From Pseudomonadota bacterium (GTDB lineage Bacteria; Pseudomonadota; Gammaproteobacteria; Steroidobacterales; Steroidobacteraceae), in the NCBI GenBank assembly GCA_031388915.1, contig JANMSB010000213.1:1-33609 (forward strand): a stretch of 33,609 nucleotides of DNA. The letters are read 5' to 3'. Both the position numbers and the translations under genes were made by a program. This document shows positions 3,066 through 24,315 of the stretch, piece by piece. The number at the start of each line of letters is the position of its first letter. The stretch's first letter is position 1. The notes below the pieces were generated by a model. The model was not told the origin of the DNA, ran no database searches, and worked only from the letters and a program-made list of their open reading frames with translations.

Positions 3066-5954
3066 ATGTCGAATTCCAAGCCCGCTACTGAGCGCTCCGA
3101 ACCCATTCTGCTGACCTTTCTAAAGCGCCGTTGGCGCCTATTGAACGTACTGGGTGTGCTGCTATTGACCTATACCCTCTTGGGCACGTTGCTGGCGCCG
3201 CACCTGATCAACCAATACGCCACCGAATACGTGCACAACGAAATGCACCGCCAACTACACCTTGGCAAGGTGCAATTCAATCCATTCACGCTGTCCTTAC
3301 GAATCGGCCAAACAAACTTCTCCGAACAAAATGGCGCGCCCATCGTTCGATTCGATCACCTACTGGTGAATGCCGAACTCAGCTCGTTGTTCACCGGCAG
3401 CTACAACTTCAAACAGATTCAACTAAACGCGCCCAACTTGAACGTGGTGGTTGATACGCAGGGCAACCTCAACCTGGATTTCAGCGCCCCGAATATGCCA
3501 GAACCCGCACCCAGTGATGCGCCTCTGCCGGCCATACGCATTGGCGAATTGCAACTAAGCAATGGCCTGGTTCGTCTTGAGGATCACTCACGACCCCAGC
3601 CCTTCATCACTGAACTCAAGCCCATCGAGTTCATGGTGAAGGACTTTCGCACTGAACCTAACCACGGCAATGCGTTTCATTTCACGGGCGCCTCCAAAGC
3701 GGAAGAAACTTTCGATTGGCAAGGCGATTTCACGGTGCAGCCGCTGGGTTCGACAGGCAAGCTGCAGATTGCTGGCTTGAAGGCCAGCACCTTGCAAAGC
3801 TATTTGCAGGAGTCGTTGCCGATGCGTCTGTTGGCCGGCGAGGTGTCGATACAGGGCGACTATCAGCTAGCAGTGAATGAGCGTCTGGAGCTGAAACTCA
3901 ACCTGCCCAGCATTGATGTCAACGCGGTACAAGTTGCGCCCAAGCACGGCGATGACACGCCGTGGGTGTCGCTGTCCACCATGCAACTAATCGGCACGCA
4001 GGTATCGCTGCAACAGCGCAATGTCGCTATTCAAAAAGTTCGTATCGATGGATTGCAACTCAACGCCTGGCTCGACCAGGACTACAAGCTGAATCTATTG
4101 GAACTACTGGGACCGGATGAACCCAGCGAGAAACCTTGGAACAGTGCCGTGAAGGACATCGAGCTGGTGAATGCGCGCATGCAGATTGAAGACCGCAGCA
4201 TCGCGCCAACCGCGCAGTTCACCTTGTTTCCGGTGCTGTTACAGGTGCAGAACTTTAGCAGCGCACCGCACACCACCATCAACATAAACACCAAAATCCA
4301 TATCAACGAACGCGCCGATTTCGATGCCGCCGGCACGATTGATCTCGACACCTTGAGTTCACAACTGAAGCTCCGGCTAAGCAATTTCGCACTCAAGGAT
4401 GTGCAGAACTACGTCGCCACCAGCACCGATATGCTGGTTAGCGACGGCCGACTGACTACCGAAGGTGATCTTTATTACCAGGGCGATGCCGCCAACAAGC
4501 ATCCGCAACTCAAGTTCACCGGTAACGTTGAAGTCACCGACTTAAGCACGCAAGACACGCTGGAAAACAAAGACTTCATCAAGTGGCAATCGCTGCAACT
4601 CAAAAATCTGAGTTACAGCATGGCGCCCGATACATTGACGATAGAACAAATGATTGCGCGCCAACCCTATGGCCGCGTGATTATCGACAGCGACGGCAGC
4701 ACCAACATTCAGCACGTGCTGCGCATACAGCCCGAGCCTGCGACGAACGACAAGGCGAAACCAACCGCCAAAGTCCGCACAGCCGCGCCGACCATGCGCA
4801 CCCGCATCACCAAGGTGATCATTGCCGACGGCTCGGCCAACTTCACCGACAACAGCGTACAACCGACCTTTTCCACCGGCATGCAACGGTTGAACGGCGC
4901 CATCACCGGCCTGTCATCGGCCAATGATTCGCGCGCCAAGATCACACTGGACGGCAGTGTCGACAACCATGCGCCCGTGACGATCACCGGTGAGGCCAAC
5001 TTCCTGGCGGCGGACACCTACAGCGATGTCGCCATGAACTTCCGCAATATGGAGTTGACCACCTTCAACCCCTACTCCGGCAAGTTCGCCGGCTACAGCA
5101 TCGCCAAGGGCAAGCTCAGCACCGAACTGCGCTATCGAATTCAAGACCGCAAACTGGATGCGCAGCATCACATCGTGGTCGATCAACTGGAGTTCGGCGC
5201 TGCTACCGACAGCAAGGATGCCGTGCCCTTGCCGATCAAACTGGCGGTGTCATTGTTGAAAGATCGCAATGGCGTGATCGACCTAAACCTGCCGGTGAGC
5301 GGCAGTCTCGACGATCCGCAGTTCAAAGTTGGACCGGTAGTCTGGAAAGCCTTCCTCGGTCTACTCACCAAGATAGCCACAGCGCCGTTCTCGGCACTGG
5401 GCTCGTTGTTTGGTGGCGGACCCGAATTGGCCTATGTAGATTTTGTACCTGGCTCTACCAACTTGAGCGCGATAGAAGCCGACAAATTGAGCAAGCTCGC
5501 CAAAGCCATGGCGGAACGGCCACAGCTGAAGTTGAACATACCGCTGACCGTAGTCACCGATGCCGATGCTGCCGCTTTGAATGAAACGGCATTCAAACAA
5601 GCATTGAATGGCGTGCTGGCTAATGCCGCAACCGCAAATAACACTCAGCGTCTCACTGCGCTCACCACTTTGTACAAAGCTCGCGTCGGCAGTACGCCCA
5701 CCTTTCCGGCATCGAACGAGCCCGCAACTGAGGTCACCACAAGCCACATTGCTTACCTTGAAGCACAACTCAAGCCGCTATATGCGATTGGCGCCGCCGA
5801 TCGTGACGCACTCACTCGTGCGCGTGCCGATACCGTGCAAGCCGCGTTGCTTGTCAACAGCGAGTTAGCCGCCGAACGCATCTACCTTACTGCGCGCAGC
5901 AATGAAGTTGAATCACCCAATGGGGTAGTGCGCATGGAATTGAAGTTGGAGTAA
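3066..5954 (+). CDS. DUF748 domain-containing large envelope protein (AsmA-like clan)
   Basis: 962-aa ORF with one N-terminal TM helix (LNVLGVLLLTYTLLGTLLAPHLI) and a long beta-rich repetitive body. The C-proximal segment DLNLPVSGSLDDPQFKVGPVVWKAFLGLLTKIATAPFSALGSLFGG matches my memory of DUF748 proteins. Confidence 0.6.
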   Translation: MSNSKPATERSEPILLTFLKRRWRLLNVLGVLLLTYTLLGTLLAPHLINQYATEYVHNEMHRQLHLGKVQFNPFTLSLRIGQTNFSEQNGAPIVRFDHLLVNAELSSLFTGSYNFKQIQLNAPNLNVVVDTQGNLNLDFSAPNMPEPAPSDAPLPAIRIGELQLSNGLVRLEDHSRPQPFITELKPIEFMVKDFRTEPNHGNAFHFTGASKAEETFDWQGDFTVQPLGSTGKLQIAGLKASTLQSYLQESLPMRLLAGEVSIQGDYQLAVNERLELKLNLPSIDVNAVQVAPKHGDDTPWVSLSTMQLIGTQVSLQQRNVAIQKVRIDGLQLNAWLDQDYKLNLLELLGPDEPSEKPWNSAVKDIELVNARMQIEDRSIAPTAQFTLFPVLLQVQNFSSAPHTTININTKIHINERADFDAAGTIDLDTLSSQLKLRLSNFALKDVQNYVATSTDMLVSDGRLTTEGDLYYQGDAANKHPQLKFTGNVEVTDLSTQDTLENKDFIKWQSLQLKNLSYSMAPDTLTIEQMIARQPYGRVIIDSDGSTNIQHVLRIQPEPATNDKAKPTAKVRTAAPTMRTRITKVIIADGSANFTDNSVQPTFSTGMQRLNGAITGLSSANDSRAKITLDGSVDNHAPVTITGEANFLAADTYSDVAMNFRNMELTTFNPYSGKFAGYSIAKGKLSTELRYRIQDRKLDAQHHIVVDQLEFGAATDSKDAVPLPIKLAVSLLKDRNGVIDLNLPVSGSLDDPQFKVGPVVWKAFLGLLTKIATAPFSALGSLFGGGPELAYVDFVPGSTNLSAIEADKLSKLAKAMAERPQLKLNIPLTVVTDADAAALNETAFKQALNGVLANAATANNTQRLTALTTLYKARVGSTPTFPASNEPATEVTTSHIAYLEAQLKPLYAIGAADRDALTRARADTVQAALLVNSELAAERIYLTARSNEVESPNGVVRMELKLE

Positions 5955-7052: not shown

Positions 7053-7302
7053 GAGGCTCCCTGATATACGGATTCGACTGCGTACCAACGCAACAGGCCG
7101 GAAGAATAAACGTCCAAGTGAGGAAAACCACCGTGTCGCCGGCAGGCGCCGATGCTGACGGCTCTCGTACCACCGGATTCACGACGCCCAATAAATAATG
7201 CAGGCGGTGCCGGCCAAAAGTGACCTAAGGCTCGTTGGCAGCGCTGGTTTTCCGTAGAATTGACGTCTATGCTTCCTGTTTGTTTTGTACCGGAGATTTT
7301 GC

Positions 7303-8151
7303 ATGTCGACTGCCGTGAAAACCCTTACCACCCGCCTTGCCCACGAACCATCCAAGCCGAGGATCGGCAGTCGCGTGCTGAATAGCAAGCAAGAGCTGTT
7401 GAGCGGCGAGCTTAGCAGCGAGATTCGTGAGCTGCTGGAACAGCGCGGCGTGCTGGTTTTTCCGGAAATCAATTTCACCAATGAAGAGCAGATCGCGTTC
7501 ACCAAGACGCTCGGCAAGTTCGCTCCCGAACGCAATAATATGGACGAGAGCGTCACCAAGATTTCGCTCGATCCCAAGGAAGCTGCCAGCGCCGAATACC
7601 TCAAGGGCTCGCTCTACTGGCATATCGACGGCACTATGAACCAAGTGCCGATCCTCGCCTCGCTGCTCACGAGCAAGAAGCTCCCCAGTTGGGGCGGCAA
7701 CACGGGTTTCTGTAACACCTATGCCGCTTGGGACGACCTGCCCGAGGAAAAGAAGGCGGAGCTTGAAGGGCTGCGCGTCATGCATTCGGTGTGGGCCTCG
7801 GTGTTTTACTACGAGCCCGAGCCGAGTTTGGCCAAGCTACAGGCCATGCAGTCGGTCGGCGAGCAGGAACTGCCGCTGGTATGGAAACACCGCTCGGGTC
7901 GCAAATCGCTGATCCTGGGCTGCACTGCGCATCACGTACTGGGCGTCAGCGCAGCGAAGAGCGCCGAGATTCTGATCGGTCTGCGCGAATGGGCGACCAG
8001 CGAGCAGTTCTCCTACAGTCACGAATGGAAAGTCGGCGACATGGTGATGTGGGACAACACCGGCACCATGCACCGCGCCGAGGCGTATGACCTTACCAGC
8101 GGTCGCATGCTCCATCGCACCAAGCTGGAAGGCGAAGAATCCTTCGTCTGA
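7303..8151 (+). CDS. TauD/TfdA-family Fe(II)/2-oxoglutarate-dependent dioxygenase
   Basis: HxD iron ligands are present in LYWHIDGT, and the distal His lies in WDNTGTMHRA. Size is about 282 aa. The start is placed at the ATG at 7303, preceded by GGAG, rather than at 7285. Confidence 0.7.
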   Translation: MSTAVKTLTTRLAHEPSKPRIGSRVLNSKQELLSGELSSEIRELLEQRGVLVFPEINFTNEEQIAFTKTLGKFAPERNNMDESVTKISLDPKEAASAEYLKGSLYWHIDGTMNQVPILASLLTSKKLPSWGGNTGFCNTYAAWDDLPEEKKAELEGLRVMHSVWASVFYYEPEPSLAKLQAMQSVGEQELPLVWKHRSGRKSLILGCTAHHVLGVSAAKSAEILIGLREWATSEQFSYSHEWKVGDMVMWDNTGTMHRAEAYDLTSGRMLHRTKLEGEESFV

Positions 8152-8177
8152 CAACACGCTGAAGCTAATGACTCAAG

Positions 8178-8214
8178 TGGCCTGGCCCTGTAACAGGGCC
8201 AGGCCATTTTTTTT
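8178..8214 (+). terminator. rho-independent terminator of the TauD-family gene
   Basis: Perfect 13-bp stem TGGCCTGGCCCTG / CAGGGCCAGGCCA with a 3-nt loop, followed by T8 (8207-8214). Confidence 0.85.
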
Positions 8215-8274
8215 GACAACTCGCCCATACGGCAATCGGCCACCACTTTGCAGCTCAAGGCCACATCGCGTTTG

Positions 8275-8305
8275 GAACGAGAAAGGCGGACCATATGGTC
8301 CGCCT
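8275..8305 (-). terminator. hairpin terminator downstream of the 8336..9211 gene
   Basis: Perfect palindrome AGGCGGACCATATGGTCCGCCT (8284-8305). On the minus strand it is followed by TTTCTCGTTCC. Confidence 0.5.
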
Positions 8306-8335
8306 TGAGTGCTAGTGCCCGAAAGGTGAAGAACG

Positions 8336-9211
8336 TTAACGCTTGGCTGAGGCGCCGGCCTCGACCGAGCTGGAGCCACTGGCTTTCACCTTGCCGTTCG
8401 ACTTCTTCACGTTGGCGCTGTTGTTGGTTGACGCATCAGACTCCATATCGAACGCGCCGGCTTCCTGCATCTTGGAGTTGGTCGCTGTACCTTGCTGTGC
8501 GCTGGCGCCGGAGCGGTTGGCGCTGACCGAACCTACCTGATTGGTTGTCTGCTGCATTGAAGCCGTCGGCGTGGCTACTGCACTGCTTGCAGCAGTCTCG
8601 CTGGCACCAGCAACCGATGCACGATTGTTGGCAGCCGCATTGGTCGCGGCAGAACTCGTGCCCGATGCGGTGTCCGTTGCACGAGCTTGAGCAGATTGCG
8701 CGGCGCCCTTTGCACTGGAGGTGACGTTGTGCGCAGCATCGACTGACGTCGCAGCGGCCACATCGGCAGTCGCCTTGGCTTGGGCAGTCGTGTCGAGGGC
8801 CTTGTCCTTGGCAACTACGGCGGTCGCTTCACCGGTGCTCTTTGCTTGCAGCGAAGTTGCTACCGCGGCGTTCTTCGCCGTCGCTGCGGCGGACTCAGTC
8901 GTGCTCTTGGTTGCATCCACTTTGGACTTGGCCGCATCAGCCGTGTGATCAACACGCGACTTGGTACGCGAACCTGCGCCATTCACGGTATCCATCGCGC
9001 CACGACCATCAACGCCGAGGTTGCCACCCACGCTGCCGCCCAGACTGCCGTTACCTGCGCCGCCAATCATGCCGCGGCTGCCGGAAAGACCGCCGCCGGC
9101 TGCGCCATTCAGCGCGCCATTGGCACCACCCACCAACTGTGCGTTAGCAATCGAGGTCAGGCTCATGGCCGCCACCAGAATCGAACCGGCAAATAAATGT
9201 TGAGTCTTCAT
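8336..9211 (-). CDS. secreted Gly- then Ala/Ser/Thr/Lys-rich low-complexity protein (hypothetical)
   Basis: 291-aa ORF with AGGAG 7 nt before the ATG and a signal peptide MKTQHLFAGSILVAAMSLTSIANA/QL. The mature part has no Trp, Tyr or Cys and a single Phe. A Gly-rich head (GGANGALNGAAGGGLSGSRGMIGGAGNGSLGG) is followed by AK/AT-rich segments such as AKSKVDATKSTTESAAATAKNAAVATSLQAKSTGEATAVVAKDKALDTTAQAKATADVAAA. Confidence 0.6.
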   Translation of the reverse strand: MKTQHLFAGSILVAAMSLTSIANAQLVGGANGALNGAAGGGLSGSRGMIGGAGNGSLGGSVGGNLGVDGRGAMDTVNGAGSRTKSRVDHTADAAKSKVDATKSTTESAAATAKNAAVATSLQAKSTGEATAVVAKDKALDTTAQAKATADVAAATSVDAAHNVTSSAKGAAQSAQARATDTASGTSSAATNAAANNRASVAGASETAASSAVATPTASMQQTTNQVGSVSANRSGASAQQGTATNSKMQEAGAFDMESDASTNNSANVKKSNGKVKASGSSSVEAGASAKR

Positions 9212-9260
9212 GTTGGTACTCCTGCAATTGGCTGCAGCCTTTCCGCAACCTTTGTAAGTA

Positions 9261-9287
9261 ATACGAACCGACTTGAAGATTTCTTCC
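9261..9287 (-). promoter_or_regulatory. ECF-type promoter-like motif upstream of the low-complexity protein gene
   Basis: The minus strand reads GGAAG-N17-CGTATTACTT. The -10-like 10-mer CGTATTACTT is identical to the one upstream of the S8 peptidase gene. It lies about 50 nt upstream of the ATG at 9211. Confidence 0.45.
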
Positions 9288-9353
9288 CTGCCGCCGAAAT
9301 TCTTTTTAGTAATTATGTCAACGGCCCGGCTGCCGGCTTACAGCCGCCATTTT

Positions 9354-10790
9354 TCAACGATGTGTGTTCGAACCTGTCTTATTGTCGGACACGACTGACA
9401 GCGATATGCGCAACGTTTCACCCACTACGCCATAGCCATACTGCTTATCAGGTCCTTTGGAACCGAGATCGCGAGCGCTATTGATCACCTCGACCCGCGC
9501 GGCAGTGGCGGCATCCGGTTGTGGCTGATTGATATGCATAGCCAACAAGCCTGCAACCAACGGCGCGGCGAATGAAGTACCGCGCACGTTAACGAATTCG
9601 CCCTGCAAGGTTGCCGCAGCCATATCAGCGCCGGGTGCGGCGAGCGTCACTTGCTTACCGCGCCCTGCTTCCACCAATACTCGATCACGCGCATCCACGG
9701 CGGTGACGCCAATCACGCGCGGATAGGACGCGGGATATAACGGCGGCGCAGCAGGACCATCATTACCCACGGCGGCAACGATCAAGTGACCGCGTGCAAT
9801 CAGGCTAGCCACCAGTTGTTTGAGCAAGGCATTGTCCGGCCCCACCAAGCTCACATTAATAACTGGCACCCGCTGCTGCGCCAGCCACGCCATGGCGCTG
9901 GCGATGCGTGTCGTCGCGCCGCCGACCGGCTGCCCGCAGTAGACATCGGCCGCATACAACTGCGCGCCCGGCGCTGCGCCGCTGAAGCGCTCGCTCTGAC
10001 CGACCAGCAACGATGCGACGGCCGTGCCATGCGCACTGGGAATGGTTTGTCTATCGCAGCCCCAACCAAGAATGCGGCTATTGCGAAACACCGGATGCGA
10101 TATATCGACGCCACCGTCGATTAACCCCACACGAGTTTTGGGATACCTTGCTGTGGTTGTGGCATTAACAGCCGCCGATGGCAGCGGCACAACATTGCTC
10201 GCAGCGCTTTGCGTATACACATGGTTGTAGTCATAGTCGCCGTTGCGATCCAGCGTGCGCAGACGCTGTAGTGCTCGGCGTGCAGTCATGCCTTGCGGCG
10301 CCAGCAAGGTCACCATACGAATGCCCAACTCCTCCATCGATTGGTCTTGTACAACGGTAAAGCCTATAGCGATGGCGGCCTGCAAACTCTGCGGCGTAGG
10401 CGACAACGACACCACCTGACTGCGCAGTACCGGCGCGCCATTGGCATCAGTTTCTAACGTATCGGGATTGGCGCGCAGTAAGGCGCGTATGCGCGCTGCC
10501 CGCAGCAGACGCTCGGACTGCGAATCCAGCTCGCTGGCGGCATCCACTACGATGGCGTCGAGTTGCCGCGTGATGGCGTTGGCGCCGGTATTGGTGGCGG
10601 TATTAGTGGCGGTATTAGTGGGCACTTGCGGCAACTGCACGTTGGGGGTGGTAGGCGCCGGCAAAGTGGGCAGCGCCAACTGCGCCTGCGCCCCCGGTGC
10701 CGACAGCAACGTCGCCAACCAACCGACACAGGCCCAGGACATCCGCCATGGGACACGTCTTTGCCGGTGAATGTCGGGTTGGTTGCTCAT
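9354..10790 (-). CDS. S8-family (subtilisin-like) serine peptidase, secreted
   Basis: 478-aa ORF with the catalytic triad in D-H-S order: GLIDGGVD, HGTAVASLLVG, GTSFAAPLVAG. The N-terminal signal has a basic n-region (HRQRRVPWR) and an AQA cleavage-like site. Confidence 0.85.
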   Translation of the reverse strand: MSNQPDIHRQRRVPWRMSWACVGWLATLLSAPGAQAQLALPTLPAPTTPNVQLPQVPTNTATNTATNTGANAITRQLDAIVVDAASELDSQSERLLRAARIRALLRANPDTLETDANGAPVLRSQVVSLSPTPQSLQAAIAIGFTVVQDQSMEELGIRMVTLLAPQGMTARRALQRLRTLDRNGDYDYNHVYTQSAASNVVPLPSAAVNATTTARYPKTRVGLIDGGVDISHPVFRNSRILGWGCDRQTIPSAHGTAVASLLVGQSERFSGAAPGAQLYAADVYCGQPVGGATTRIASAMAWLAQQRVPVINVSLVGPDNALLKQLVASLIARGHLIVAAVGNDGPAAPPLYPASYPRVIGVTAVDARDRVLVEAGRGKQVTLAAPGADMAAATLQGEFVNVRGTSFAAPLVAGLLAMHINQPQPDAATAARVEVINSARDLGSKGPDKQYGYGVVGETLRISLSVVSDNKTGSNTHR

Positions 10791-10797
10791 AAAAGTA

Positions 10798-10824
10798 ATA
10801 CGTTGCGCATGGCGGTTTTAATCC
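10798..10824 (-). promoter_or_regulatory. ECF-type promoter-like motif upstream of the S8 peptidase gene
   Basis: The minus strand reads CCAGGATTAAAACCGCCATGCGCAACGTATTACTT, that is GGATT-N17-CGTAT. The -10-like element ends 7 nt before the ATG at 10790. Confidence 0.45.
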
Positions 10825-10914
10825 TGGCTCAAATGCTAGCATTCGGACTCGTGGTGTCGGCACCGAAACACAATACGCTGCCGCCAACAAACAATAATTT
10901 ATTTGAAGCGGCCT

Positions 10915-10941
10915 GGAATAAACCGACCTGGCCCGTCGTAT
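10915..10941 (+). promoter_or_regulatory. ECF-type promoter-like motif upstream of the sigma factor gene (putative autoregulation)
   Basis: The plus strand reads CCTGGAATAAACCGACCTGGCCCGTCGTATAC, that is GGAAT-N17-CGTAT. It matches 20 of 32 positions in an ungapped alignment with the divergent S8 motif, with matches concentrated in the -35-like and -10-like blocks. Confidence 0.45.
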
Positions 10942-10955
10942 ACAGTTTAAGAGCC

Positions 10956-11453
10956 ATGAGCGAAGCATTCGAAAGCATTCGAGTTCAACTCATTGAGTTG
11001 CTGCCCCGGCTGCGGCGTTTTGCCCGCAATTTGGCTCGACAGCCTGATGACGCCGACGACATCGTGCAAATTGCATTGGAGCGCGCCCTGTCGCGCTGCG
11101 AACAATGGGATGCCAGCTCGCGTCTGGATAGCTGGATGTTCGGCATCATCCGCAATGCGTGGATCGATGAAGTGCGCAGCCGGCAGCGACGCGGCCCGCA
11201 TCTGGACGTGAACGAGATGAGTGAAACGATCGCCGATAGTCACGCTGCGATGGAGATTGAAATGATGTCCGTGCAAGCCGCCATGGCCCAGTTGCCCGAA
11301 GAACAGCGCACCGCTGTCAGCTTGGTGCTGGTGGAAGGGCTGTCTTACAAAGAAGCCGCGCAGGTGATGGAGATTCCCATCGGCACATTGACCAGTCGCT
11401 TGGCGCGCGGCCGAGAGGCGTTGCAGGCGTTGCTCGGAGGTAAGTCGTCATGA
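10956..11453 (+). CDS. ECF-family RNA polymerase sigma-70 factor
   Basis: The ORF track starts at 10563, but that extension is antisense to the S8 gene. The ATG at 10956 gives a 165-aa protein. It has region 2 (DDADDIVQIALERAL, WMFGIIRNAWIDEVR) and a region 4 HTH (EQRTAVSLVLVEGLSYKEAAQVMEIPIGTLTSRLARGREAL). Confidence 0.85.
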   Translation: MSEAFESIRVQLIELLPRLRRFARNLARQPDDADDIVQIALERALSRCEQWDASSRLDSWMFGIIRNAWIDEVRSRQRRGPHLDVNEMSETIADSHAAMEIEMMSVQAAMAQLPEEQRTAVSLVLVEGLSYKEAAQVMEIPIGTLTSRLARGREALQALLGGKSS

Positions 11454-12208
11454 GTACCGACATCAACATCACCGATGAAGTGCTGATGGCCTATGCAGAT
11501 GGCGAACTGGATGTCGCACAAGCAGCGCGTGTAGAACAAGCGATGCAGCAGGATGCCAGCGTTGCCGCGCGGGTTGCCCAGCACCGAGCCTTACGCGCGC
11601 AATTGCAAAACGGTTTATCCGGCTTGCTATCCGAGCCTGTCCCGACACGCTTGCTGAGCATGCTGCAAGCGCGCCCCGCTACAAACAGCGCCGCCGATAA
11701 AGTGGTGGATCTCGCTCAAGCGCGTCAGCAGAAGGCGGCGCCTGCGCGTCACTGGCATAGCCGCGAGTGGTTCGCGCTGGCGGCATCGTTAATCGCGGGC
11801 GTCGTGATCGGTATGTATGCGCTAAGTTTCAATTCAAGCGGATTGATCGCGACGCGCGATGGTTCGCTGCTGGCGCAGGGAGAGCTTGCCAATGCACTGA
11901 CCACACAATTAGCCAGCTCCACGGCGGCAGATTCGTCGGTACATATCGGCATCAGCTTTCGTGATCGCGAGGGTAACTATTGCCGCAGCTTTGCCATCCA
12001 AGGCAGCTCGCTAGCCGGCCTGGCCTGTCACGAGCACAACAACTGGCGCGTGCAGATGCTGACCGAGGCGAAAACTCAAGCGGGTGAATTCCGGCAAGCC
12101 GGCTCGGCGACGCCGCCTGCAGTACTGGCTCTCATCGAGCAACAGATTGACGGAGAACCGCTCGATACCGATATGGAAACGGCGGCATTACGCGAGGGAT
12201 GGCAGTAG
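11450..12208 (+). CDS. membrane-spanning anti-sigma factor
   Basis: The ATGA start/stop overlap with the sigma gene implies translational coupling. The N-terminus is anti-sigma-domain-like (ITDEVLMAYADGELD...), but I see no H-x3-C-x2-C zinc ligands. One TM helix (WFALAASLIAGVVIGMYAL) precedes a ~125-aa periplasmic domain with two Cys (NYCRSF, LACHEH). Confidence 0.75.
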   Translation: MSTDINITDEVLMAYADGELDVAQAARVEQAMQQDASVAARVAQHRALRAQLQNGLSGLLSEPVPTRLLSMLQARPATNSAADKVVDLAQARQQKAAPARHWHSREWFALAASLIAGVVIGMYALSFNSSGLIATRDGSLLAQGELANALTTQLASSTAADSSVHIGISFRDREGNYCRSFAIQGSSLAGLACHEHNNWRVQMLTEAKTQAGEFRQAGSATPPAVLALIEQQIDGEPLDTDMETAALREGWQ

Positions 12209-12226
12209 AGATAGCCACATACTTGG

Positions 12227-13591
12227 CTACTCAACCCGCAACTCCAACTGCGCACCTTTGTCGTCAATGGTGTGCATGATCACTGGCCGGCGCCAGACAC
12301 GATGGATGTATTGCAACACTTTCTTGCCGCGCTCGACATCCAAGCCACGACCATCGGTTTGATGGTCGTGCTTCAACTCCAACGTGCCGTCGACGCGAAT
12401 ATGCGAGGCCGCAATGGAGGGCGCGCCGAAGTTGTACTTGGGTGCGAGCAGCGCCTCGTGCAAGTCGCTTAACTTGGCGTCTTTGACCACCACGCGGCCA
12501 TTGGACTCGGCATTGAATTTGAATAAATTGAGTTCATCCGCCAGGTTTTCATCCAGATAGTTGCGCACAAAGCTGAAATCATCGTCTTGCTGCATGATGT
12601 TGCGCGCCGCTTCGATGCCGTCTTGCTCGATGATTTTTTCCCACATGGTAAATCCCAGGTGGTAGGGATTGATGGACAACGCAATGTGCTCATCGGATGC
12701 ATACGGGCGTACCACATCGGAATGGCACTTAATGGCATCCAAGTAAGCGGCTTGCGGCATGAAGTCCGCCTCACGTAACAAGCGGGCGTGCCAGTACGAC
12801 GCCCAGCCTTCATTCATGATTTGCGTAGCAAACACCGGATAGAAGTAGAACGACTCCTCGCGCACTGCCAGGAAAATATCTCGCTCCCAGCCTTCCAGCT
12901 CCGGTGCGTACTGCGCGATGAACCACAGCAAGTCTTTTTCCAGATGCGGTGGAATCGGCGCGCGCTGGCGCGGCACTGCCGCCGTTTGCGCTGCCAGTTC
13001 TGGGTCCAGTGCAGCGAAACGTTTGGCAAACTCACCATCGCGGTGCAGGGGCTTGGCGGACAGGTATTCCGGATATTTCTCGCGCCGCAGCCGATGATTG
13101 GTGTCGATGTGCTGCTCCAATGCCAGTGCGGCATCTAGCACGACTTCGACGCGCGCGGCGCCGTATTCTTCGATAGCGCGACCAATTTGCCGGGCATGGT
13201 TGGCAGCGTGTTCGACAATGTGTTCGCTGATCTGCGACTGGGCGCGATTGAACAACAAGTTATTGCGCGAGAAGTCGGCGTGACCCAACACATGGGCGGT
13301 CACCAACACGTTCTCGGCCAGACTATTGTTTTGCGCCAGGTAGGCGTGGCCGGGATTACCCGGGAACACCACCTCGAACAAACGCGAGTTGCCCATCTGG
13401 TGTTGGATCAGTTGATAAATATAACGCACGCCGAACGACCAATGCGGCATACGCACCGGCAAGCCATACACCGAAATCTCCATCATGAAGCTTTGCGGCA
13501 CGGCCTCGAAGTCGACTGGATTGAAACTCAGCCCCAGCGAGGTGGCCAGCTTTTCGACCTTCGGCAGATAATCACGCCATTCGCTACTCAT
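12227..13591 (-). CDS. ycgB: SpoVR/YcgB-family protein
   Basis: 454 aa. The N-terminus (LPKVEKLATSLGLSFNPVDFEAVPQSFMMEISVYGLPVRMPHWSFG) and the body (GNPGHAYLAQNN, HVLGHADF) are typical SpoVR. It is the third gene of the prkA-yeaH-spoVR triad. Confidence 0.85.
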   Translation of the reverse strand: MSSEWRDYLPKVEKLATSLGLSFNPVDFEAVPQSFMMEISVYGLPVRMPHWSFGVRYIYQLIQHQMGNSRLFEVVFPGNPGHAYLAQNNSLAENVLVTAHVLGHADFSRNNLLFNRAQSQISEHIVEHAANHARQIGRAIEEYGAARVEVVLDAALALEQHIDTNHRLRREKYPEYLSAKPLHRDGEFAKRFAALDPELAAQTAAVPRQRAPIPPHLEKDLLWFIAQYAPELEGWERDIFLAVREESFYFYPVFATQIMNEGWASYWHARLLREADFMPQAAYLDAIKCHSDVVRPYASDEHIALSINPYHLGFTMWEKIIEQDGIEAARNIMQQDDDFSFVRNYLDENLADELNLFKFNAESNGRVVVKDAKLSDLHEALLAPKYNFGAPSIAASHIRVDGTLELKHDHQTDGRGLDVERGKKVLQYIHRVWRRPVIMHTIDDKGAQLELRVE

Positions 13592-13615
13592 AGATCACTC
13601 GTATGTTGCAATCTC

Positions 13616-13683
13616 GTAGGGGCGGGTTTCAAACCCGCCTGCTTCGCCGCAAGACATAGGGTGGGTTTGAAGCCCACCCCTAC
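13616..13683. repeat. REP/BIME-like element: two inverted copies of a ~25-bp palindromic unit
   Basis: The left unit is GTAGGGGCGGGTTTCAAACCCGCC. The right unit, reverse-complemented, is GTAGGGGTGGGCTTCAAACCCACC. Differences between the copies fall in the stems (GCGGGTTT/AAACCCGC versus GTGGGCTT/AAACCCAC) and largely keep each hairpin intact. The element overlaps the yeaH stop codon. Confidence 0.7.
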
Positions 13684-14840
13684 GCCGCCTCCTGATGCTT
13701 GAAGAAATGCCGCACGGCATCCCAGATATTTTCCAACTGGGTGATGGCGAAGCTGCCCACTGCCTTGCCGCGCTCGGCATATTCGCGGAACAACAGACCC
13801 ACTTCGGTTTGCAGATTCTGCTGCGCATTCGAAGTGACTTCGAGATAGCCGCTGTAGTTGCATATCTCCGTCAACTCCTGCATGGCCACTTCGGCCGGCG
13901 CGCGATCCTCCGAGTAGTTGTCGCCGTCGGAGGCGTAAAACAAATAGATGTTGTAACGCGCGGGGCTGTAGCGTTCGGCAATAATCTCGCGCACCTTGTT
14001 GAGGCCGGTTGAAGTGACCGTGCCGCCGCTGCCGCTGACTTGGAAAAACTCTTCTTCGTTGAATTCCCAGGCTTCCGTGGTGTGCGCTACAAACACCGTA
14101 TCCAGGTGTCGGTACTGACGCTTCAAACCTTGCGTTGCCCAGAAGAAAAAGGTTTTTGCGAGCTTGCGATCGGCATCGCTCATGCTGCCCGACACATCCA
14201 TCAGGAAGAACACCACGGCCTGTATGGATGGTTGTTCGCGTTGATTCAATTGCCGGAAGCGCAGGTCATCGTCGGTAAAGTTTGGCCCATTGGTCTGAAT
14301 AGCGCGCCGCTTCACCGACTCGCGCAACGAACGCCGTCGATCCAGACGTGAGCGTGCGCCCTTACGATCCCAACCTTCCCGCTGCCAGTCGGTGGATTCG
14401 GACTTGCCGACACGCGCCTTGAGATTCGGCAATTCCATTTCATCCCACAGCCAGTCGACGATGTCATCGATCTTGAATTCCAGCGTGAATTCGATGCCGC
14501 CGCCATCATTGCCGCCCTGCCCCTTACCGGGTTGACCACCGCCCTGCGGCTGGCCTTGCGCCAACACATCACCCGGCTTGGCTTGTCCCTGGCCCACACC
14601 ATCACGTTGCTGTTGCTGATTCAACCGGAAGTGATAGTGCTCCAGCATCTTCACCGGCACTTTGACAGTGCGTGAACCACTGCCCATGACATCGGCGCCG
14701 GCAACTATCTCCGGCAGATGCTGACGCACCGCGTCGCGGACTTTTTCATTGTGTCGTAACCAATCCCTGGCGCCGCGCGAGAACAACTCGTACCAACCAT
14801 TAACATTGGATTTCGGAAGCAGGGAATCGTATTCGCTCAC
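13680..14840 (-). CDS. yeaH: YeaH/YhbH-family (DUF444) protein with vWA-like domain
   Basis: 386 aa. Contains WYELFSRGARDWLRHNEKVRDAVRQHLPEI, a Gly/Gln-rich linker, and a MIDAS-like FFLMDVSGSMS. It lies between prkA and spoVR. Confidence 0.85.
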   Translation of the reverse strand: MSEYDSLLPKSNVNGWYELFSRGARDWLRHNEKVRDAVRQHLPEIVAGADVMGSGSRTVKVPVKMLEHYHFRLNQQQQRDGVGQGQAKPGDVLAQGQPQGGGQPGKGQGGNDGGGIEFTLEFKIDDIVDWLWDEMELPNLKARVGKSESTDWQREGWDRKGARSRLDRRRSLRESVKRRAIQTNGPNFTDDDLRFRQLNQREQPSIQAVVFFLMDVSGSMSDADRKLAKTFFFWATQGLKRQYRHLDTVFVAHTTEAWEFNEEEFFQVSGSGGTVTSTGLNKVREIIAERYSPARYNIYLFYASDGDNYSEDRAPAEVAMQELTEICNYSGYLEVTSNAQQNLQTEVGLLFREYAERGKAVGSFAITQLENIWDAVRHFFKHQEAA

Positions 14841-14878
14841 CTCAACCTCCTGGCGCAGGACACCTTCGTCCTTAGGGT

Positions 14879-16834
14879 CTACTCCTGCGCCAACAACGTG
14901 GTTACATAGTTCAGCGCTTCCTTGGCGCTGTGCTCGTCATAGCCATACTCGTTCACCAAGCGCTGCTGCACGGCTGATACTTTCTTGCGCGCTTCGTCAT
15001 CGGGACGCGAGCTGGATGTCACCAGTCTCAATACATCGCGACGCTCTTCGAACAAATACTGCTCAATGGCTTCGTGCATGCGTGCATGACTGTTGAGCGT
15101 AAATTTATCGCCGGCCTTGAACGCCATCATGGCCTTGCGCACCACTTCCTGACGGAAGGAATGCTTGCCGGAATCGGATACTTTGATCTTTTCTTCCACT
15201 TGACGCAGGAAACGCTCGTCTGCCGGACGTGTTTCGTTGGTGATGGGATCAGTGACTTCGCGGTGATCCAACGAGGCCTCCACTTCGTCGAGATATTTCT
15301 CGAGCAGTTGCTGCGCCTCCTCTTCAAATGAGGCGAACAGCGCGCGATGAACATCCTCCTTGACCCAGCGGTTGTAGAAATCTTTACGCGCCAGCACCAA
15401 AAAATCAATCCATTGTTTTTTCTGCTTGGCGTCCATACGCGCATCGCTTTCCACCGAATCCTTCAGCGCCAGTAGCAATTCCATGCTGGTCAAGCTGGCG
15501 GCATCGGTGCGCGTGATAGCGTTCGATATAGCGTTGACGATGAAGCGTGGACTAACCCCACCCAAACCTTCATCGGGGGCCTCGGCACGCAGGCGCTGCG
15601 CTTCGTTCTCGCCAAAGCCTTCAACACTTTCGCCGGCGTAGATGCGCAGCTTCTTGGCTATATCCAATCCTTCCTTCTCTGGCTTTTGCAATCGAGTCAG
15701 GATGGAAAACACCGCTGCCAGCTTGAGCACATGCGGATCAAGATGCACATCGCGGAACGCCGGCGCACCCGATACCAGCTTCTGATAAATGCGCGCCTCG
15801 TCTTTATAGGAGAGCGCATACGGCACCTTGATGATGACCATGCGGTCGAGCAGCGCTTCGTTTTCCTTTTCCTGCAGAAACTTATGGAACTCCGCGAGAT
15901 TGGTATGCGCAACAATGGTTTCGTCGAGATAGATGAGCGGGAAGCGCGATACCTTGACGTTCTTTTCTTGCGTCAAGGTCAGCAGCAAGTACAGAAACTC
16001 GCGCTTCACCTTAAGTATCTCAATCATTTCCAGCATGCCGCGACTGGCGGCATACACCGCGCCCGACCAGGACCAGGCACGTGGATCGCCTTCGTCGCCG
16101 ACTTCGGCTACCTTCGATAGATCCACCGAACCCACCAAGTCGGCAATGTCTGCGGTGGTGGGATCGTGCGGCGCATACGTGCCCACGCCCATGCGCATGG
16201 CTTCCGACAGGAACACGCGCTCGACCGGTACGCGCAGATAATCGCCTTCGTACTCGCGTACTAACTTGTCGCGTGCCCAGGGACTCAACTCGCCAGTCAA
16301 TTCAACGCCGTAAGATTCGCGGAACTCGGCGCGCAAGCTGGTTGGAATCAAGTTCAGTGGCGACTCGTGCATCGGTGAACCCTTGATGGCATACACCGCG
16401 CCGTCGTCGGTACGACTGTATTCTTCCAGCCCGCGCTTGAGCAGGATGGCCATGGTGGATTTGCCGCCAGAGGGCGGCCCGAGCAACAACAGCAAGCGCC
16501 GACCGACATCCGAGCCCGCGGCTGCTGCTTTGAAATAGTCGATAACACGCGCCAGCGGCTCGTCGATGCCGTACAACTCGCGTTGAAAGAGTTCGCGGGA
16601 CTTTACGGTTTCATCCGTGCTGGCGGCAGATTTTCCGTACCAGCGCAACATGTCCCAGATGTATTGATGGCTGGTGCGCGCCAGCGCGCGCGATGCGTGC
16701 GGTAGCACGTCGTTGAGAAAGTCACCGAAGGTGCCTTCCCAGTGCTTGGCCTTGTGCTGTTTGCCAAAGGCACTCAAAGATTCAACAAACTTCGACTGAC
16801 GACCCGTCGAACCGTTGCCGATGTCGGACTGCAT
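14879..16834 (-). CDS. yeaG: PrkA/YeaG-family AAA+ serine protein kinase-like protein
   Basis: The ORF track starts at 16909. I prefer the ATG at 16834, which follows GGAGGAG. Walker A is LLLLGPPSGGKST. The ~651-aa length and the conserved triad context support the call. Confidence 0.85.
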   Translation of the reverse strand: MQSDIGNGSTGRQSKFVESLSAFGKQHKAKHWEGTFGDFLNDVLPHASRALARTSHQYIWDMLRWYGKSAASTDETVKSRELFQRELYGIDEPLARVIDYFKAAAAGSDVGRRLLLLLGPPSGGKSTMAILLKRGLEEYSRTDDGAVYAIKGSPMHESPLNLIPTSLRAEFRESYGVELTGELSPWARDKLVREYEGDYLRVPVERVFLSEAMRMGVGTYAPHDPTTADIADLVGSVDLSKVAEVGDEGDPRAWSWSGAVYAASRGMLEMIEILKVKREFLYLLLTLTQEKNVKVSRFPLIYLDETIVAHTNLAEFHKFLQEKENEALLDRMVIIKVPYALSYKDEARIYQKLVSGAPAFRDVHLDPHVLKLAAVFSILTRLQKPEKEGLDIAKKLRIYAGESVEGFGENEAQRLRAEAPDEGLGGVSPRFIVNAISNAITRTDAASLTSMELLLALKDSVESDARMDAKQKKQWIDFLVLARKDFYNRWVKEDVHRALFASFEEEAQQLLEKYLDEVEASLDHREVTDPITNETRPADERFLRQVEEKIKVSDSGKHSFRQEVVRKAMMAFKAGDKFTLNSHARMHEAIEQYLFEERRDVLRLVTSSSRPDDEARKKVSAVQQRLVNEYGYDEHSAKEALNYVTTLLAQE

Positions 16835-17002
16835 GGTCACTCCTCCGTTACAACGAAGCCGCACCCACCAAAACCGCCATCTTATTGCTTCGCCCTTCCT
16901 TGGAATCAAATCAACCTGCGTTCACCATCTTTATCGCGAGGTTATTAGTTAACTTAAGAATGAGACTACTCTTATTCAATTCCAGTTCCGTGAATCAGTA
17001 CA

Positions 17003-20253: not shown

Positions 20254-22035
20254 ATGGCGTACGTTGCAATTGCCGACCGCGATGATCCGCATGCGATGCA
20301 TGAACCGCAGTCCTTCCTAACCGCCTATATCTGGAGTCAGGACCACAAAGTCATTGCCATTCAGTACACCATCACGGCTATGGCCATCGGCGTGGTGGCG
20401 CTGGTGCTGTCGGTACTGATGCGCTTGCAGTTGGGGTTTCCTCATTCGTTCTCCTTCATCGCGCCGGAGAACTACTATCAGTTCATCACCATGCACGGAA
20501 TGATCATGGTGATCTACCTGCTCACCGCATTGTTCTTGGGCGGTTTTGGCAACTACCTCATTCCCTTGATGTGCGGCGCGCGCGATATGGCGTTTCCGTA
20601 CCTGAACATGCTCAGCTACTGGCTGTACTTGCTAGCCGTTTTGGTATTAGTGGCCGGCTTCTTCGTACCCGGCGGTCCCACCGGCGCGGGCTGGACCCTG
20701 TATCCGCCACAAGCCATTCTGCCCGGCACACCGGGAGCGACCTGGGGCATTTTATCCATGCTGGCATCGCTGGGCATTTTCATCATCGCATTCACCATGG
20801 GTGGCTTGAACTATGTCACCACGGTGTTGCAATCGCGCTGTCGCGGCATGACTCTGATGCGGCTGCCATTGTCAGTGTGGGGCATCTTCATGGCCACGGT
20901 ACTGGGCTTGCTGGCCTTTCCCGCCTTGTTTGTATCGGCCATCATGATGACGCTGGATAGCGTGCTCGGCACCAGCTTCTTCATGCCTGCGTTGGTGTCC
21001 ATGGGGCAACCAGCCACATACAGTGGCGGCAGCCCGTTACTGTTCCAACATTTGTTCTGGTTCTTCGGCCATCCTGAGGTGTACATCGTAGCGTTGCCGG
21101 CCTTCGGCATCGTCTCGGATTTGCTTAGCACGCACGCACGCCGACACATCTTCGGCTACCGGATGATGGTGTGGGCCATTCTCGCCATCGGCTGTCTGAG
21201 CTTTGTAGTGTGGGCACACCACATGTACATCAGCGGCATGAATCCGTATTTCGGCTTTTTCTTCGCCACCACGACGTTAATCATTGCGGTACCCACGGCG
21301 ATCAAGGTTTACAACTGGGTACTCACGCTGTGGCGCGGCGACATTCATCTCACCGTGCCGATGCTGTTTTCCATCGGCTTTATTTTTACCTTCATCAACG
21401 GCGGCCTGACCGGTTTGTTCCTGGGCAATGTCACTGTGGATGTGCCGCTGTCCGCCACTTACTTCGTGGTCGCACACTTTCATCTGGTGATGGGTGTATC
21501 GCCGATATTGGTGGTGTTCGGCGCTCTTTATCACTGGTACCCGAAAGCCACTGGCCGCATGTTGAACGATACGCTGGGCAAGATTCATTTCTGGATGACC
21601 TTCATCGGCACCTATGCCATCTACCTGCCCATGTACTACTTGGGAATTTTGGGCGTACCGCGCCGCTACTATGCCTACAGCAGCGCTATCGAATTTATTC
21701 CGCCCTCGGTAGAAACCATGAATCGCTGGATCACTATCTCGGCGATAGTGGTGGCCCTGGTGCAGTTGGTGTTCTTGTTCAACCTGGTTTGGTCGCTATT
21801 CAAAGGTAAGCCCGCCGGCGGCAATCCTTGGGGCGCCACGTCGCTGGAATGGCAAACTCCCGATACGCCACCGAAGCACGGCAACTGGGGTCCGAAGCTA
21901 CCGGTGGTATATCGCTGGGCTTACGACTACAGCGTGCCGGGCGCGTCACAAGATTTCATTCCGCAAAATGTATCTCCCGATGAACCGATGGCTGCAGGTA
22001 TAACTCTTGGCCGCGATCACGGAGCACACTCTTGA
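20254..22035 (+). CDS. ctaD: cytochrome c oxidase subunit I (A-type haem-copper oxidase)
   Basis: 593 aa with WFFGHPEVYI, GARDMAFPYLN (D-channel Asp), VWAHHMY and VVAHFHLV, which are the canonical haem a/a3-CuB ligand motifs. Confidence 0.92.
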   Translation: MAYVAIADRDDPHAMHEPQSFLTAYIWSQDHKVIAIQYTITAMAIGVVALVLSVLMRLQLGFPHSFSFIAPENYYQFITMHGMIMVIYLLTALFLGGFGNYLIPLMCGARDMAFPYLNMLSYWLYLLAVLVLVAGFFVPGGPTGAGWTLYPPQAILPGTPGATWGILSMLASLGIFIIAFTMGGLNYVTTVLQSRCRGMTLMRLPLSVWGIFMATVLGLLAFPALFVSAIMMTLDSVLGTSFFMPALVSMGQPATYSGGSPLLFQHLFWFFGHPEVYIVALPAFGIVSDLLSTHARRHIFGYRMMVWAILAIGCLSFVVWAHHMYISGMNPYFGFFFATTTLIIAVPTAIKVYNWVLTLWRGDIHLTVPMLFSIGFIFTFINGGLTGLFLGNVTVDVPLSATYFVVAHFHLVMGVSPILVVFGALYHWYPKATGRMLNDTLGKIHFWMTFIGTYAIYLPMYYLGILGVPRRYYAYSSAIEFIPPSVETMNRWITISAIVVALVQLVFLFNLVWSLFKGKPAGGNPWGATSLEWQTPDTPPKHGNWGPKLPVVYRWAYDYSVPGASQDFIPQNVSPDEPMAAGITLGRDHGAHS

Positions 22036-24133: not shown

Positions 24134-24210
24134 TGGTGCGACCGGAGAGATTCGAACTCCCGACCTCCTGGTTCGTAGCCAGGCGCTCTATCCAACTGAG
24201 CTACGGTCGC
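24134..24210 (-). tRNA. argV: tRNA-Arg (anticodon ACG)
   Basis: The reverse complement is GCGACCGTAGCTCAGTTGGATAGAGCGCCTGGCTACGAACCAGGAGGTCGGGAGTTCGAATCTCTCCGGTCGCACCA. It folds as a cloverleaf with anticodon loop CT-ACG-AA, an encoded CCA end, and close similarity to E. coli tRNA-Arg(ACG). Confidence 0.95.
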
Positions 24211-24224
24211 ATTGCTAAATTAAT

Positions 24225-24315
24225 TGGCGGAGAGAGAGGGATTCGAACCCTCGATGGGCTTTTGACCCATACGCCCTTAGCAGGGGCGCGCCTTCGACCA
24301 CTCGGCCATCTCTCC
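24225..24315 (-). tRNA. serV: tRNA-Ser (anticodon GCU), long variable arm
   Basis: The reverse complement is GGAGAGATGGCCGAGTGGTCGAAGGCGCGCCCCTGCTAAGGGCGTATGGGTCAAAAGCCCATCGAGGGTTCGAATCCCTCTCTCTCCGCCA. It has anticodon loop CT-GCT-AA, a class II variable arm, and close similarity to E. coli serV. Confidence 0.95.

Follow-up and report, generated by a model that had tools for sequence, protein, structure and literature searches.

A group 26 extracytoplasmic function sigma/anti-sigma pair linked to a divergent pro-subtilisin gene and a secreted low-complexity protein in a gammaproteobacterium

Described ECF26 systems and the layout of the locus

Extracytoplasmic function (ECF) sigma factors of group 26 (ECF26) are proteobacterial, have a one-helix anti-sigma factor encoded at position +1, and recognize promoters with GGAATAAA at −35 and GTT at −10; the gene at position −1 varies by subgroup and may encode a catalase, a chitin-binding protein, a subtilase or other proteins, subtilases being found in ECF26s4, s10, s14 and s27 (Casas-Pastor et al. 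2021, supplement). In Sinorhizobium meliloti, the ECF26 gene rpoE6 is divergent from the serine protease gene SMa0142, an arrangement described as 'widely conserved' in the group, and overexpression of RpoE6 raised SMa0142 (log2 4.7) from a mapped ECF26 promoter, induced SMa0148 more strongly than any other gene (log2 6.5), and also raised ecfR6, from which the authors inferred autoregulation (Lang et al. 2018, PMC6180224). Here we analyzed a homologous locus at positions 8336–12208 of a 33,609-nt (33.6-kb) stretch of DNA, hereafter the window. The module is one more ECF26 with a subtilase at −1, from an uncultured gammaproteobacterium related to Steroidobacteraceae, and it encodes a sigma factor, a membrane anti-sigma factor, a pro-subtilisin of peptidase family S8 (S8) and a secreted low-complexity protein (LC), the latter two probably being its dedicated output.

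The four open reading frames (ORFs) of the module and their associated features, with promoter scores from a position weight matrix (PWM), were located as follows.

8336–9211, minus strand: LC, secreted low-complexity protein of 291 aa; ORF with no Pfam or NCBIfam family
9261–9287, minus strand: predicted ECF26-type promoter of LC; exact pattern match, PWM score 25.2
9354–10790, minus strand: S8, pro-subtilisin of family S8A, 478 aa (or 462 aa from Met17); Pfam Peptidase_S8, 1.1e-32
10798–10824, minus strand: predicted ECF26-type promoter of S8; pattern match, PWM score 19.6
10915–10941, plus strand: predicted autoregulatory ECF26-type promoter of the sigma/anti-sigma operon; pattern match, PWM score 24.7
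10956–11453, plus strand: ECF sigma factor of 165 aa; Pfam Sigma70_r2 and Sigma70_r4_2
11450–12208, plus strand: single-pass anti-sigma factor of 252 aa; 31% full-length identity to EcfR6, one helix
8175–8209, no strand assigned: strong hairpin of 16 bp, between the TauD-family and LC genes

The stop of the sigma gene and the start of the anti-sigma gene shared a 4-base ATGA overlap at 11450–11453 (junction TCATGAGT), and a GGAGG Shine-Dalgarno sequence was present about 10 nt upstream of the anti-sigma start. An earlier note on this DNA, made from the sequence alone, had described a translationally coupled sigma/anti-sigma pair with this overlap, divergent from a signal-peptide-bearing S8 gene that is followed by a secreted low-complexity gene, and all of these elements were in place. 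Its view of the module as undescribed did not hold, because the ECF26 classification already lists −1 subtilases and the homologous S. meliloti locus was studied in 2018. What the window and its relatives add is modest: LC as a fourth conserved gene, preceded by a promoter of its own, an anti-sigma domain without zinc ligands, overlapping divergent promoters in some lineages, and predicted near-leaderless transcripts of sigma and S8.

The likeness to the S. meliloti rpoE6-ecfR6/SMa0142 locus extended to gene order (S8 divergent from sigma, which is followed by the anti-sigma gene), the stop/start overlap, the homology of all three proteins (46%, 31% and 36% identity for sigma, anti-sigma and S8, respectively) and the promoter type (GGAATA...CGT), and in S. 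meliloti the protease gene is a sigma target. That locus differs in being megaplasmid-borne, in having no Gly/Ala-rich protein downstream of S8, and in the spacing of its S8 promoter (N13, versus N14 in the window). Apart from the protease gene, its local targets comprise a VOC/glyoxalase-family gene, SMa0146 and SMa0148, to which VOC-family and DUF6065 genes correspond at the syntenic Sinorhizobium locus in our set (L086). With ECF26s4, s10, s14 and s27 the module shared its proteobacterial host, the one-helix anti-sigma factor at +1, the subtilase at −1 and the autoregulatory GGAATAAA-Xn-GTT promoter. However, ECF26 has been described with a 'zinc finger' anti-sigma factor, whereas the anti-sigma family of the module has no His/Cys ligands, and an LC gene with its own promoter is absent from the published description of the group.

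Conservation of the neighborhood and its promoters

The sigma factor matched Pfam Sigma70_r2 (2.6e-15, residues 18–82) and Sigma70_r4_2 (1.1e-15, residues 107–159), in a scanned translation of 168 aa, which has three more N-terminal residues than the protein of 165 aa; region 3 was not matched in the Pfam scan, leaving sigma2 and sigma4 only, the architecture of group-4 sigma factors. Its start was placed at ATG 10956, and a long ORF beginning with TTG at 10563 was rejected as the sigma gene. The closest characterized sigma factor was RpoE6 of S. meliloti 1021 (46% identity over 165 aligned columns, query 1–161), which is classed as ECF26s14 (Casas-Pastor et al. 2021, supplement), while the best NCBIfam match, PRK12511, fell under its cut-off. 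Judged by its sequence, the protein is a member of ECF group 26 and of the lineage with a subtilase at −1, an assignment made by the proxy of identity to RpoE6. The sigma2/sigma4 architecture, the one-helix anti-sigma factor at +1, the GGAATAAA-type promoter and the subtilase at −1 are all ECF26 traits. ECF33, in which a subtilase is found at +2, was rejected given the −1 position of S8 and the ECF26s14 class of the closest characterized sigma factor.

A database search with the anti-sigma protein identified 979 homologues. Scanning genome contigs with this single protein recovered nothing, and an alignment query was needed. The first four neighborhoods, from a Steroidobacteraceae genome, Luteimonas suaedae, Massilia horti and a 97%-identical contig, all had S8 divergent from sigma and anti-sigma, with a protein lacking Pfam families downstream of S8. 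A profile scan of one genome per species then gave 80 further loci, from Steroidobacteraceae, Massilia, Duganella, Pseudoduganella, Janthinobacterium, Novilysobacter, Stakelama, Sphingomonas and Hyphomonadaceae. S8 was divergent from and adjoined sigma in 82 of 85 related loci (tblastn), and the remaining three comprised two contig ends and one orphan anti-sigma paralogue from Massilia horti. This arrangement is far beyond chance.

The association was also found on plasmids and from the side of the protease. S8 was present at 10 of 11 plasmid loci, with anti-sigma identity as low as ~26%, and triads at 26–36% anti-sigma identity were found on plasmids of Sphingomonas, Novosphingobium, Aminobacter, Sinorhizobium, Rhizobium and Agrobacterium. 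The locus of Burkholderia YI23, which matched only the cytoplasmic domain of the anti-sigma factor, had no S8. In the reverse search, every listed plasmid match that reached the N-terminal domain of S8 came from the same plasmid genera as the anti-sigma matches, and, where both coordinates were given, the listed S8 matches lay within ~2 kb of an anti-sigma match, apart from that of Microvirga ossetica (~6.5 kb). An S8 from Paracoccus without an anti-sigma match still adjoined a sigma gene and a gene for an unnamed protein of 226 aa, and two chromosomal S8 look-ups both returned the four-gene layout. S8 is thus a conserved and reciprocal neighbor of orthologous sigma/anti-sigma pairs, a point on which the earlier note had made its proposal hinge. 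The module comprises four genes in beta- and gammaproteobacteria and some alphaproteobacteria (sphingomonads and a Hyphomonadaceae genome), and three in Rhizobiaceae and Aminobacter.

In mirror-tree comparisons, the distance matrices of the module components correlated with r of 0.64–0.84, and no swapping of S8 was seen. When sigma was controlled for, the periplasmic domain of the anti-sigma factor and the catalytic domain of S8 retained a partial r of 0.50, which 0 of 500 permutations reached; the corresponding values were 0.53 for the two domains of S8 and 0.28 for the two halves of the anti-sigma factor. Segment and alignment length, and the compartment that the two domains share, confound this signal, and we treat it as a lead only.

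The pattern GGAWKAAA-N14-CGTAT occurred exactly three times in the window, upstream of LC, S8 and sigma, and in none of 100 shuffles, a test that is circular in that the pattern was derived from the same three sites. Searched with up to two mismatches, the site of sigma itself found those of LC and S8 at one mismatch each, where 0.38 matches were expected, along with one further match at two mismatches (21675–21701). A PWM made from the sigma promoters of 80 other species gave the LC site the highest score in the window (25.2), followed by those of sigma (24.7) and S8 (19.6), with the next best site in the window at 4.5. Specifically, the LC promoter (GGAAGAAA-N14-CGTAT) lay ~47 nt upstream of the LC ATG; the −10 box of the S8 promoter (GGATTAAA-N14-CGTAT) ended 8 nt before ATG 10790; and the sigma promoter (GGAATAAA-N14-CGTAT), 15 nt upstream of the sigma ATG, agreed with the published ECF26 consensus, GGAATAAA-Xn-GTT / CGTTTT. 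No sigma70-like promoter was found in 8000–12500.

Across the set, 82 of 85 loci had a sigma-directed motif with its −35 box ~40 nt before the start of sigma, 67 of 71 had an LC-directed site (PWM score of at least 5), and 56 of 85 had an S8-directed site above the 99.99th background percentile. Control of S8 by the sigma factor, as the earlier note had supposed, is therefore plausible from the sigma-type promoter upstream of it in the window and at these 56 loci. Moreover, the published SMa0142 promoter sequence was found verbatim at the syntenic Sinorhizobium locus. Transcription starts predicted with the −10-to-start spacing mapped in S. meliloti would leave a leader of ~8 nt on the sigma transcript and of 0–1 nt on that of S8 (start ~10791, relative to ATG 10790). 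The start of S8 is ambiguous between ATG 10790 and Met17 at 10742, which a public gene call used; we favor a leaderless mRNA translated from ATG 10790, because the Met17 form would have no charged n-region in its signal peptide.

In some lineages the divergent promoters shared DNA. In Oxalobacteraceae (L003, L007, L008, L015, L019 and others, at ~5460–5490) the divergent −35 boxes overlapped as a palindrome (GGAAGAAAATCCC / GGGATTTTCTTCC), and in sphingomonads (L075, L080, L087) the promoters overlapped face to face (GGATGAAACG...CGTTTCATCC). Such sharing may force competition or coordination between the two directions.

Anti-sigma factor, pro-subtilisin and low-complexity protein

The anti-sigma factor was modeled with AlphaFold2 (AF2; mean predicted local distance difference test, pLDDT, of 85) as a zinc-free, class-I-like domain (~9–73), one long predicted membrane helix (104–128) and a periplasmic alpha/beta domain (~130–252), the membrane helix dividing the N-terminal helical part from the C-terminal one. 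It was 31% identical to S. meliloti EcfR6 over its full length (residues 3–249). The N-terminal domain comprised four helices at 9–73 (pLDDT ~96) that had only weak matches to NepR, ChrR and MucA (E 0.03; Foldseek probability 0.57–0.66). The match to zf-HC2 was also weak, at 19.3 bits below the Pfam cut-off of 22.2, and among 30 homologues no His/Cys zinc ligands were conserved in residues 1–100. Hence the H-x3-C-x2-C signature of zinc-binding anti-sigma factors is lacking, which bears out the absence of HxxxCxxC remarked on in the earlier note.

The periplasmic domain was compact and confidently folded, with pLDDT mostly >90. Its two cysteines, C178 and C193, were invariant in the 30 homologues and lay on adjacent strands of a predicted hairpin (177–183, 188–195), the register of which makes a cross-strand disulfide probable. 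Pfam contained no credible family for this domain at E up to 5, and Foldseek found no relative of the anti-sigma model in the Protein Data Bank with E <0.001. A PepSY-like or propeptide-like fold was considered and dropped: the order of elements (beta-beta-alpha-4beta-alpha-alpha) is unlike that of I9, and Foldseek gave no such match. The orphan paralogue of Massilia horti, on a second contig (L043:6001–6759), was 44% identical to the anti-sigma factor over its full length and retained both cysteines. Within 6 kb upstream of it there was neither sigma nor S8, and a LON-N-domain-like ORF was found there instead; the same genome also carries a complete module (L003).

S8 matched subtilisin BPN' at 1e-22 and SMa0142 with 36% identity (residues 125–456). 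From the N-terminus, its signal helix was followed by a disordered Pro/Thr/Asn linker, then a long helix, the propeptide (~112–194) and the catalytic domain (~218–457), and the AF2 model had a pLDDT of 82 and a predicted template modeling score of 0.78. The propeptide was modeled as beta-alpha-beta-beta-alpha-beta at 112–194 with pLDDT >93, and the catalytic domain as compact and BPN'-like. The best Foldseek matches were unautoprocessed pro-Tk-subtilisin, fervidolysin and pro-subtilisin E, aligned over ~380–430 columns that covered both domains. The Pfam I9 model did not match the propeptide, and the N-terminal region had nothing credible in Pfam at E up to 5. The catalytic triad (D225/H254/S406) was conserved in 81 of 83 homologues and the oxyanion Asn (N320) in 75 of 83. 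Additionally, two cysteines of the catalytic domain, C245 and C285, were invariant in 36 homologues, a pattern that fits a structural disulfide and an oxidizing, periplasmic or extracellular, site of action.

S8 is a canonical secreted zymogen of family S8A. It resembles subtilisin E/BPN', Tk-subtilisin and fervidolysin in its propeptide and catalytic fold and in its D-H-S triad and oxyanion Asn, and its AF2 model and Foldseek matches give it the look of an ordinary secreted pro-subtilisin, without a membrane anchor or docking domain. BPN' is processed between AHAY and AQS, and the likely autoprocessing junction of S8, between NHVY and TQS, resembles it. Unlike those pro-subtilisins, S8 has an additional disordered linker and long helix between signal peptide and propeptide, and its gene is dedicated to an ECF sigma factor. 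The linker was the least conserved part of the precursor, and the sole result of a tandem-repeat search fell within it, a 12-bp unit present three times (95% match) at 10586–10621 that encodes TNTATNTATNTG.

LC had a signal-peptide-like N-terminus ending in ...ANAQ, a Gly-rich GGxxGxLGG segment, and an Ala/Ser/Thr/Asn-rich body, with A, G, S, T, N and Q making up ~70% of its residues; searches of Pfam at E up to 5 returned nothing credible. Members of the LC family ranged from 182 to 483 aa and shared a plan of signal peptide, (Q)(L/V)LGGG-x2-G-x-LGG segment, variable Ala/Ser/Thr-rich body and Asn/Ala-rich C-terminus. An LC-type protein was encoded directly downstream of S8 in at least 71 of the 85 informative loci, and the modules of Rhizobiaceae and Aminobacter kept S8 and had no LC. 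Three of the loci without LC, from plasmids of Sinorhizobium, Rhizobium and Agrobacterium (L086, L093, L094), carried a DUF6065 gene just beyond the anti-sigma gene, which by synteny is the counterpart of SMa0148. LC is an obvious candidate, and a probable, substrate of the co-induced subtilase.

Beyond the module, a SpoVR / DUF444 (YeaH) / PrkA operon (12227–16909, minus strand) is convergent with the anti-sigma gene and lies 18 bp from its stop. This adjacency was shared by the two closest relatives (L001, L005) and not by other clades, and it probably reflects synteny within the lineage, not membership of the module. On the other side, the perfect 16-bp hairpin at 8175–8209 is followed by a T-run and separates LC from a convergent TauD-family dioxygenase gene (7285–8151); it is probably a bidirectional terminator that marks the end of the module transcripts. 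Adjacent tRNA-Arg(ACG) and tRNA-Ser(GCT) genes were found at 24134–24315 (minus strand), and an Rfam search of 7500–13000 gave no match.

The subtilase as output, trigger or brake

We consider it most probable, at roughly 0.6, that the module is an autoregulated ECF26 switch, the local regulon of which, pro-subtilisin and LC, serves as a dedicated output, either an enzyme with its likely substrate or two secreted effectors. At rest, the membrane anti-sigma factor would hold the sigma factor through its zinc-free N-terminal domain, and an envelope signal, sensed on the periplasmic side by the small alpha/beta domain with its two cysteines, would free it. The freed sigma factor would then drive three nearly identical promoters within 1.7 kb, of which that of its own operon would provide both positive autoregulation and re-synthesis of the anti-sigma factor, and the other two would express the pro-subtilisin and the secreted, Gly/Ala-rich and disordered LC. 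The pro-subtilisin would be exported as a zymogen, mature by removal of its propeptide, and act in the periplasm or extracellularly, most plausibly on LC or on other envelope or extracellular proteins.

We favor this reading because of the three promoters and the experiment on RpoE6, because S8 is built as an ordinary zymogen, and because the gene at −1 varies by subgroup, the pattern expected of cargo or target genes. The three promoters and the induction of SMa0142 by RpoE6 directly support the suggestion of the earlier note that the protease and LC are the output. The present analysis provides the gene content, the homologies, the conservation, the promoter motifs and the fold of the pro-subtilisin, and experiments on the homologue provide the sigma-dependent induction of the protease; the signal, the release mechanism, the localization and the substrate are the inferred parts of the model. 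Several points weigh against it. The promoters of the module are predictions, 29 of the 85 loci had no clear S8-directed site, and the predicted leaderless S8 transcript is unusual. Deletion of rpoE6-ecfR6 gave no phenotype, and neither a function nor an inducing signal was found (Lang et al. 2018, PMC6180224), which leaves an 'output' without a known purpose. Moreover, the association is tighter and older than that of most regulator-cargo pairs, holding down to ~26% anti-sigma identity and in both directions with no swapping of S8, and it would therefore be compatible with the protease having a part in regulation. The co-variation of the periplasmic and S8 catalytic domains (partial r 0.50), on a par with that of the two S8 domains (0.53), points the same way.

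In one such role, which we regard as rather unlikely, the mature subtilase would be a site-1 protease that clips the two-Cys periplasmic domain, with an intramembrane protease completing release, and sigma control of S8 would make the loop self-reinforcing. The near-obligate, reciprocal co-occurrence across alpha-, beta- and gammaproteobacteria would suit this role, as would the lack of S8 in Burkholderia YI23, where only the cytoplasmic anti-sigma domain was matched, the co-variation of the two domains beyond the sigma phylogeny, and the sigma-type promoter of S8. In E. coli, rseP/ecfE is a precedent for an ECF-cascade protease that is itself a member of the regulon. As the module probably does, the sigma-E/RseA-DegS-RseP system of E. 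coli and the AlgU/MucA-AlgW-MucD system of Pseudomonas aeruginosa combine an autoregulated ECF sigma factor, a membrane anti-sigma factor of class-I type and a periplasmic serine protease with a genetic or functional link to the pathway. However, the proteases of these systems are PDZ-domain enzymes of the HtrA type (family S1) rather than members of S8, rpoE of E. coli has no divergent pairing with the gene of the trigger protease, DegS, and cleavage of the anti-sigma factor by the subtilase is a proposal here. Our literature search returned no paper showing a subtilase as site-1 protease of, or acting on, an ECF anti-sigma factor, in agreement with the earlier note, and none testing the function of SMa0142.

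Further evidence is unfavorable to cleavage of the sensor by S8. The mirror-tree signal is confounded as described above, S8 carries nothing that would anchor or dock it at the membrane, and the periplasmic domain is compact, high in pLDDT and probably held by its cross-strand disulfide. A positive loop with nothing to check it would require an additional gate, and the S. meliloti work reported no such dependence, though it did not test for it. We assign a similarly small chance to a related scheme in which the subtilase is a dedicated periplasmic protease that either cleaves the two-Cys sensor domain or is restrained by it, and LC is a competing substrate or the signal, together forming a protease-gated feedback switch in alpha-, beta- and gammaproteobacteria. 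If true, this would make the subtilase the first site-1 protease of family S8 in an ECF pathway.

Less likely still is a housekeeping role by negative feedback, in which an accumulating or misfolded secreted protein, possibly LC, would be the signal and the induced subtilase would remove it, ending the response. S8 and LC appear to be co-induced from the same type of promoter, a disordered LC would be a natural protease substrate, and tight linkage between a protease and a sensor is what a signal and its remover would be expected to show; DegP and MucD shut off the sigma-E and AlgU responses in this manner. Against this, the modules of Rhizobiaceae and Aminobacter dispense with LC while keeping S8, and nothing points to peptide binding by the periplasmic domain, which has no recognizable fold relative. 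Finally, chance adjacency of an ordinary protease gene and an unrelated ECF pair, for which only the commonness of S8 genes could be cited, is refuted by the survey, in which 82 of 85 loci of distinct species and 10 of 11 plasmid loci had the same divergent layout, promoter motifs being shared as well.

An output consisting of the pro-subtilisin and LC is thus the reading we retain for the module. Should the subtilase instead prove to be a trigger, it would bring a new protease family into anti-sigma proteolysis. ECF26 is a large proteobacterial group, for most members of which the signal and the release mechanism are not known. Here, the local regulon with its three promoters has sharp limits, and whether the protease acts in it as output, trigger or brake is a question worth testing.

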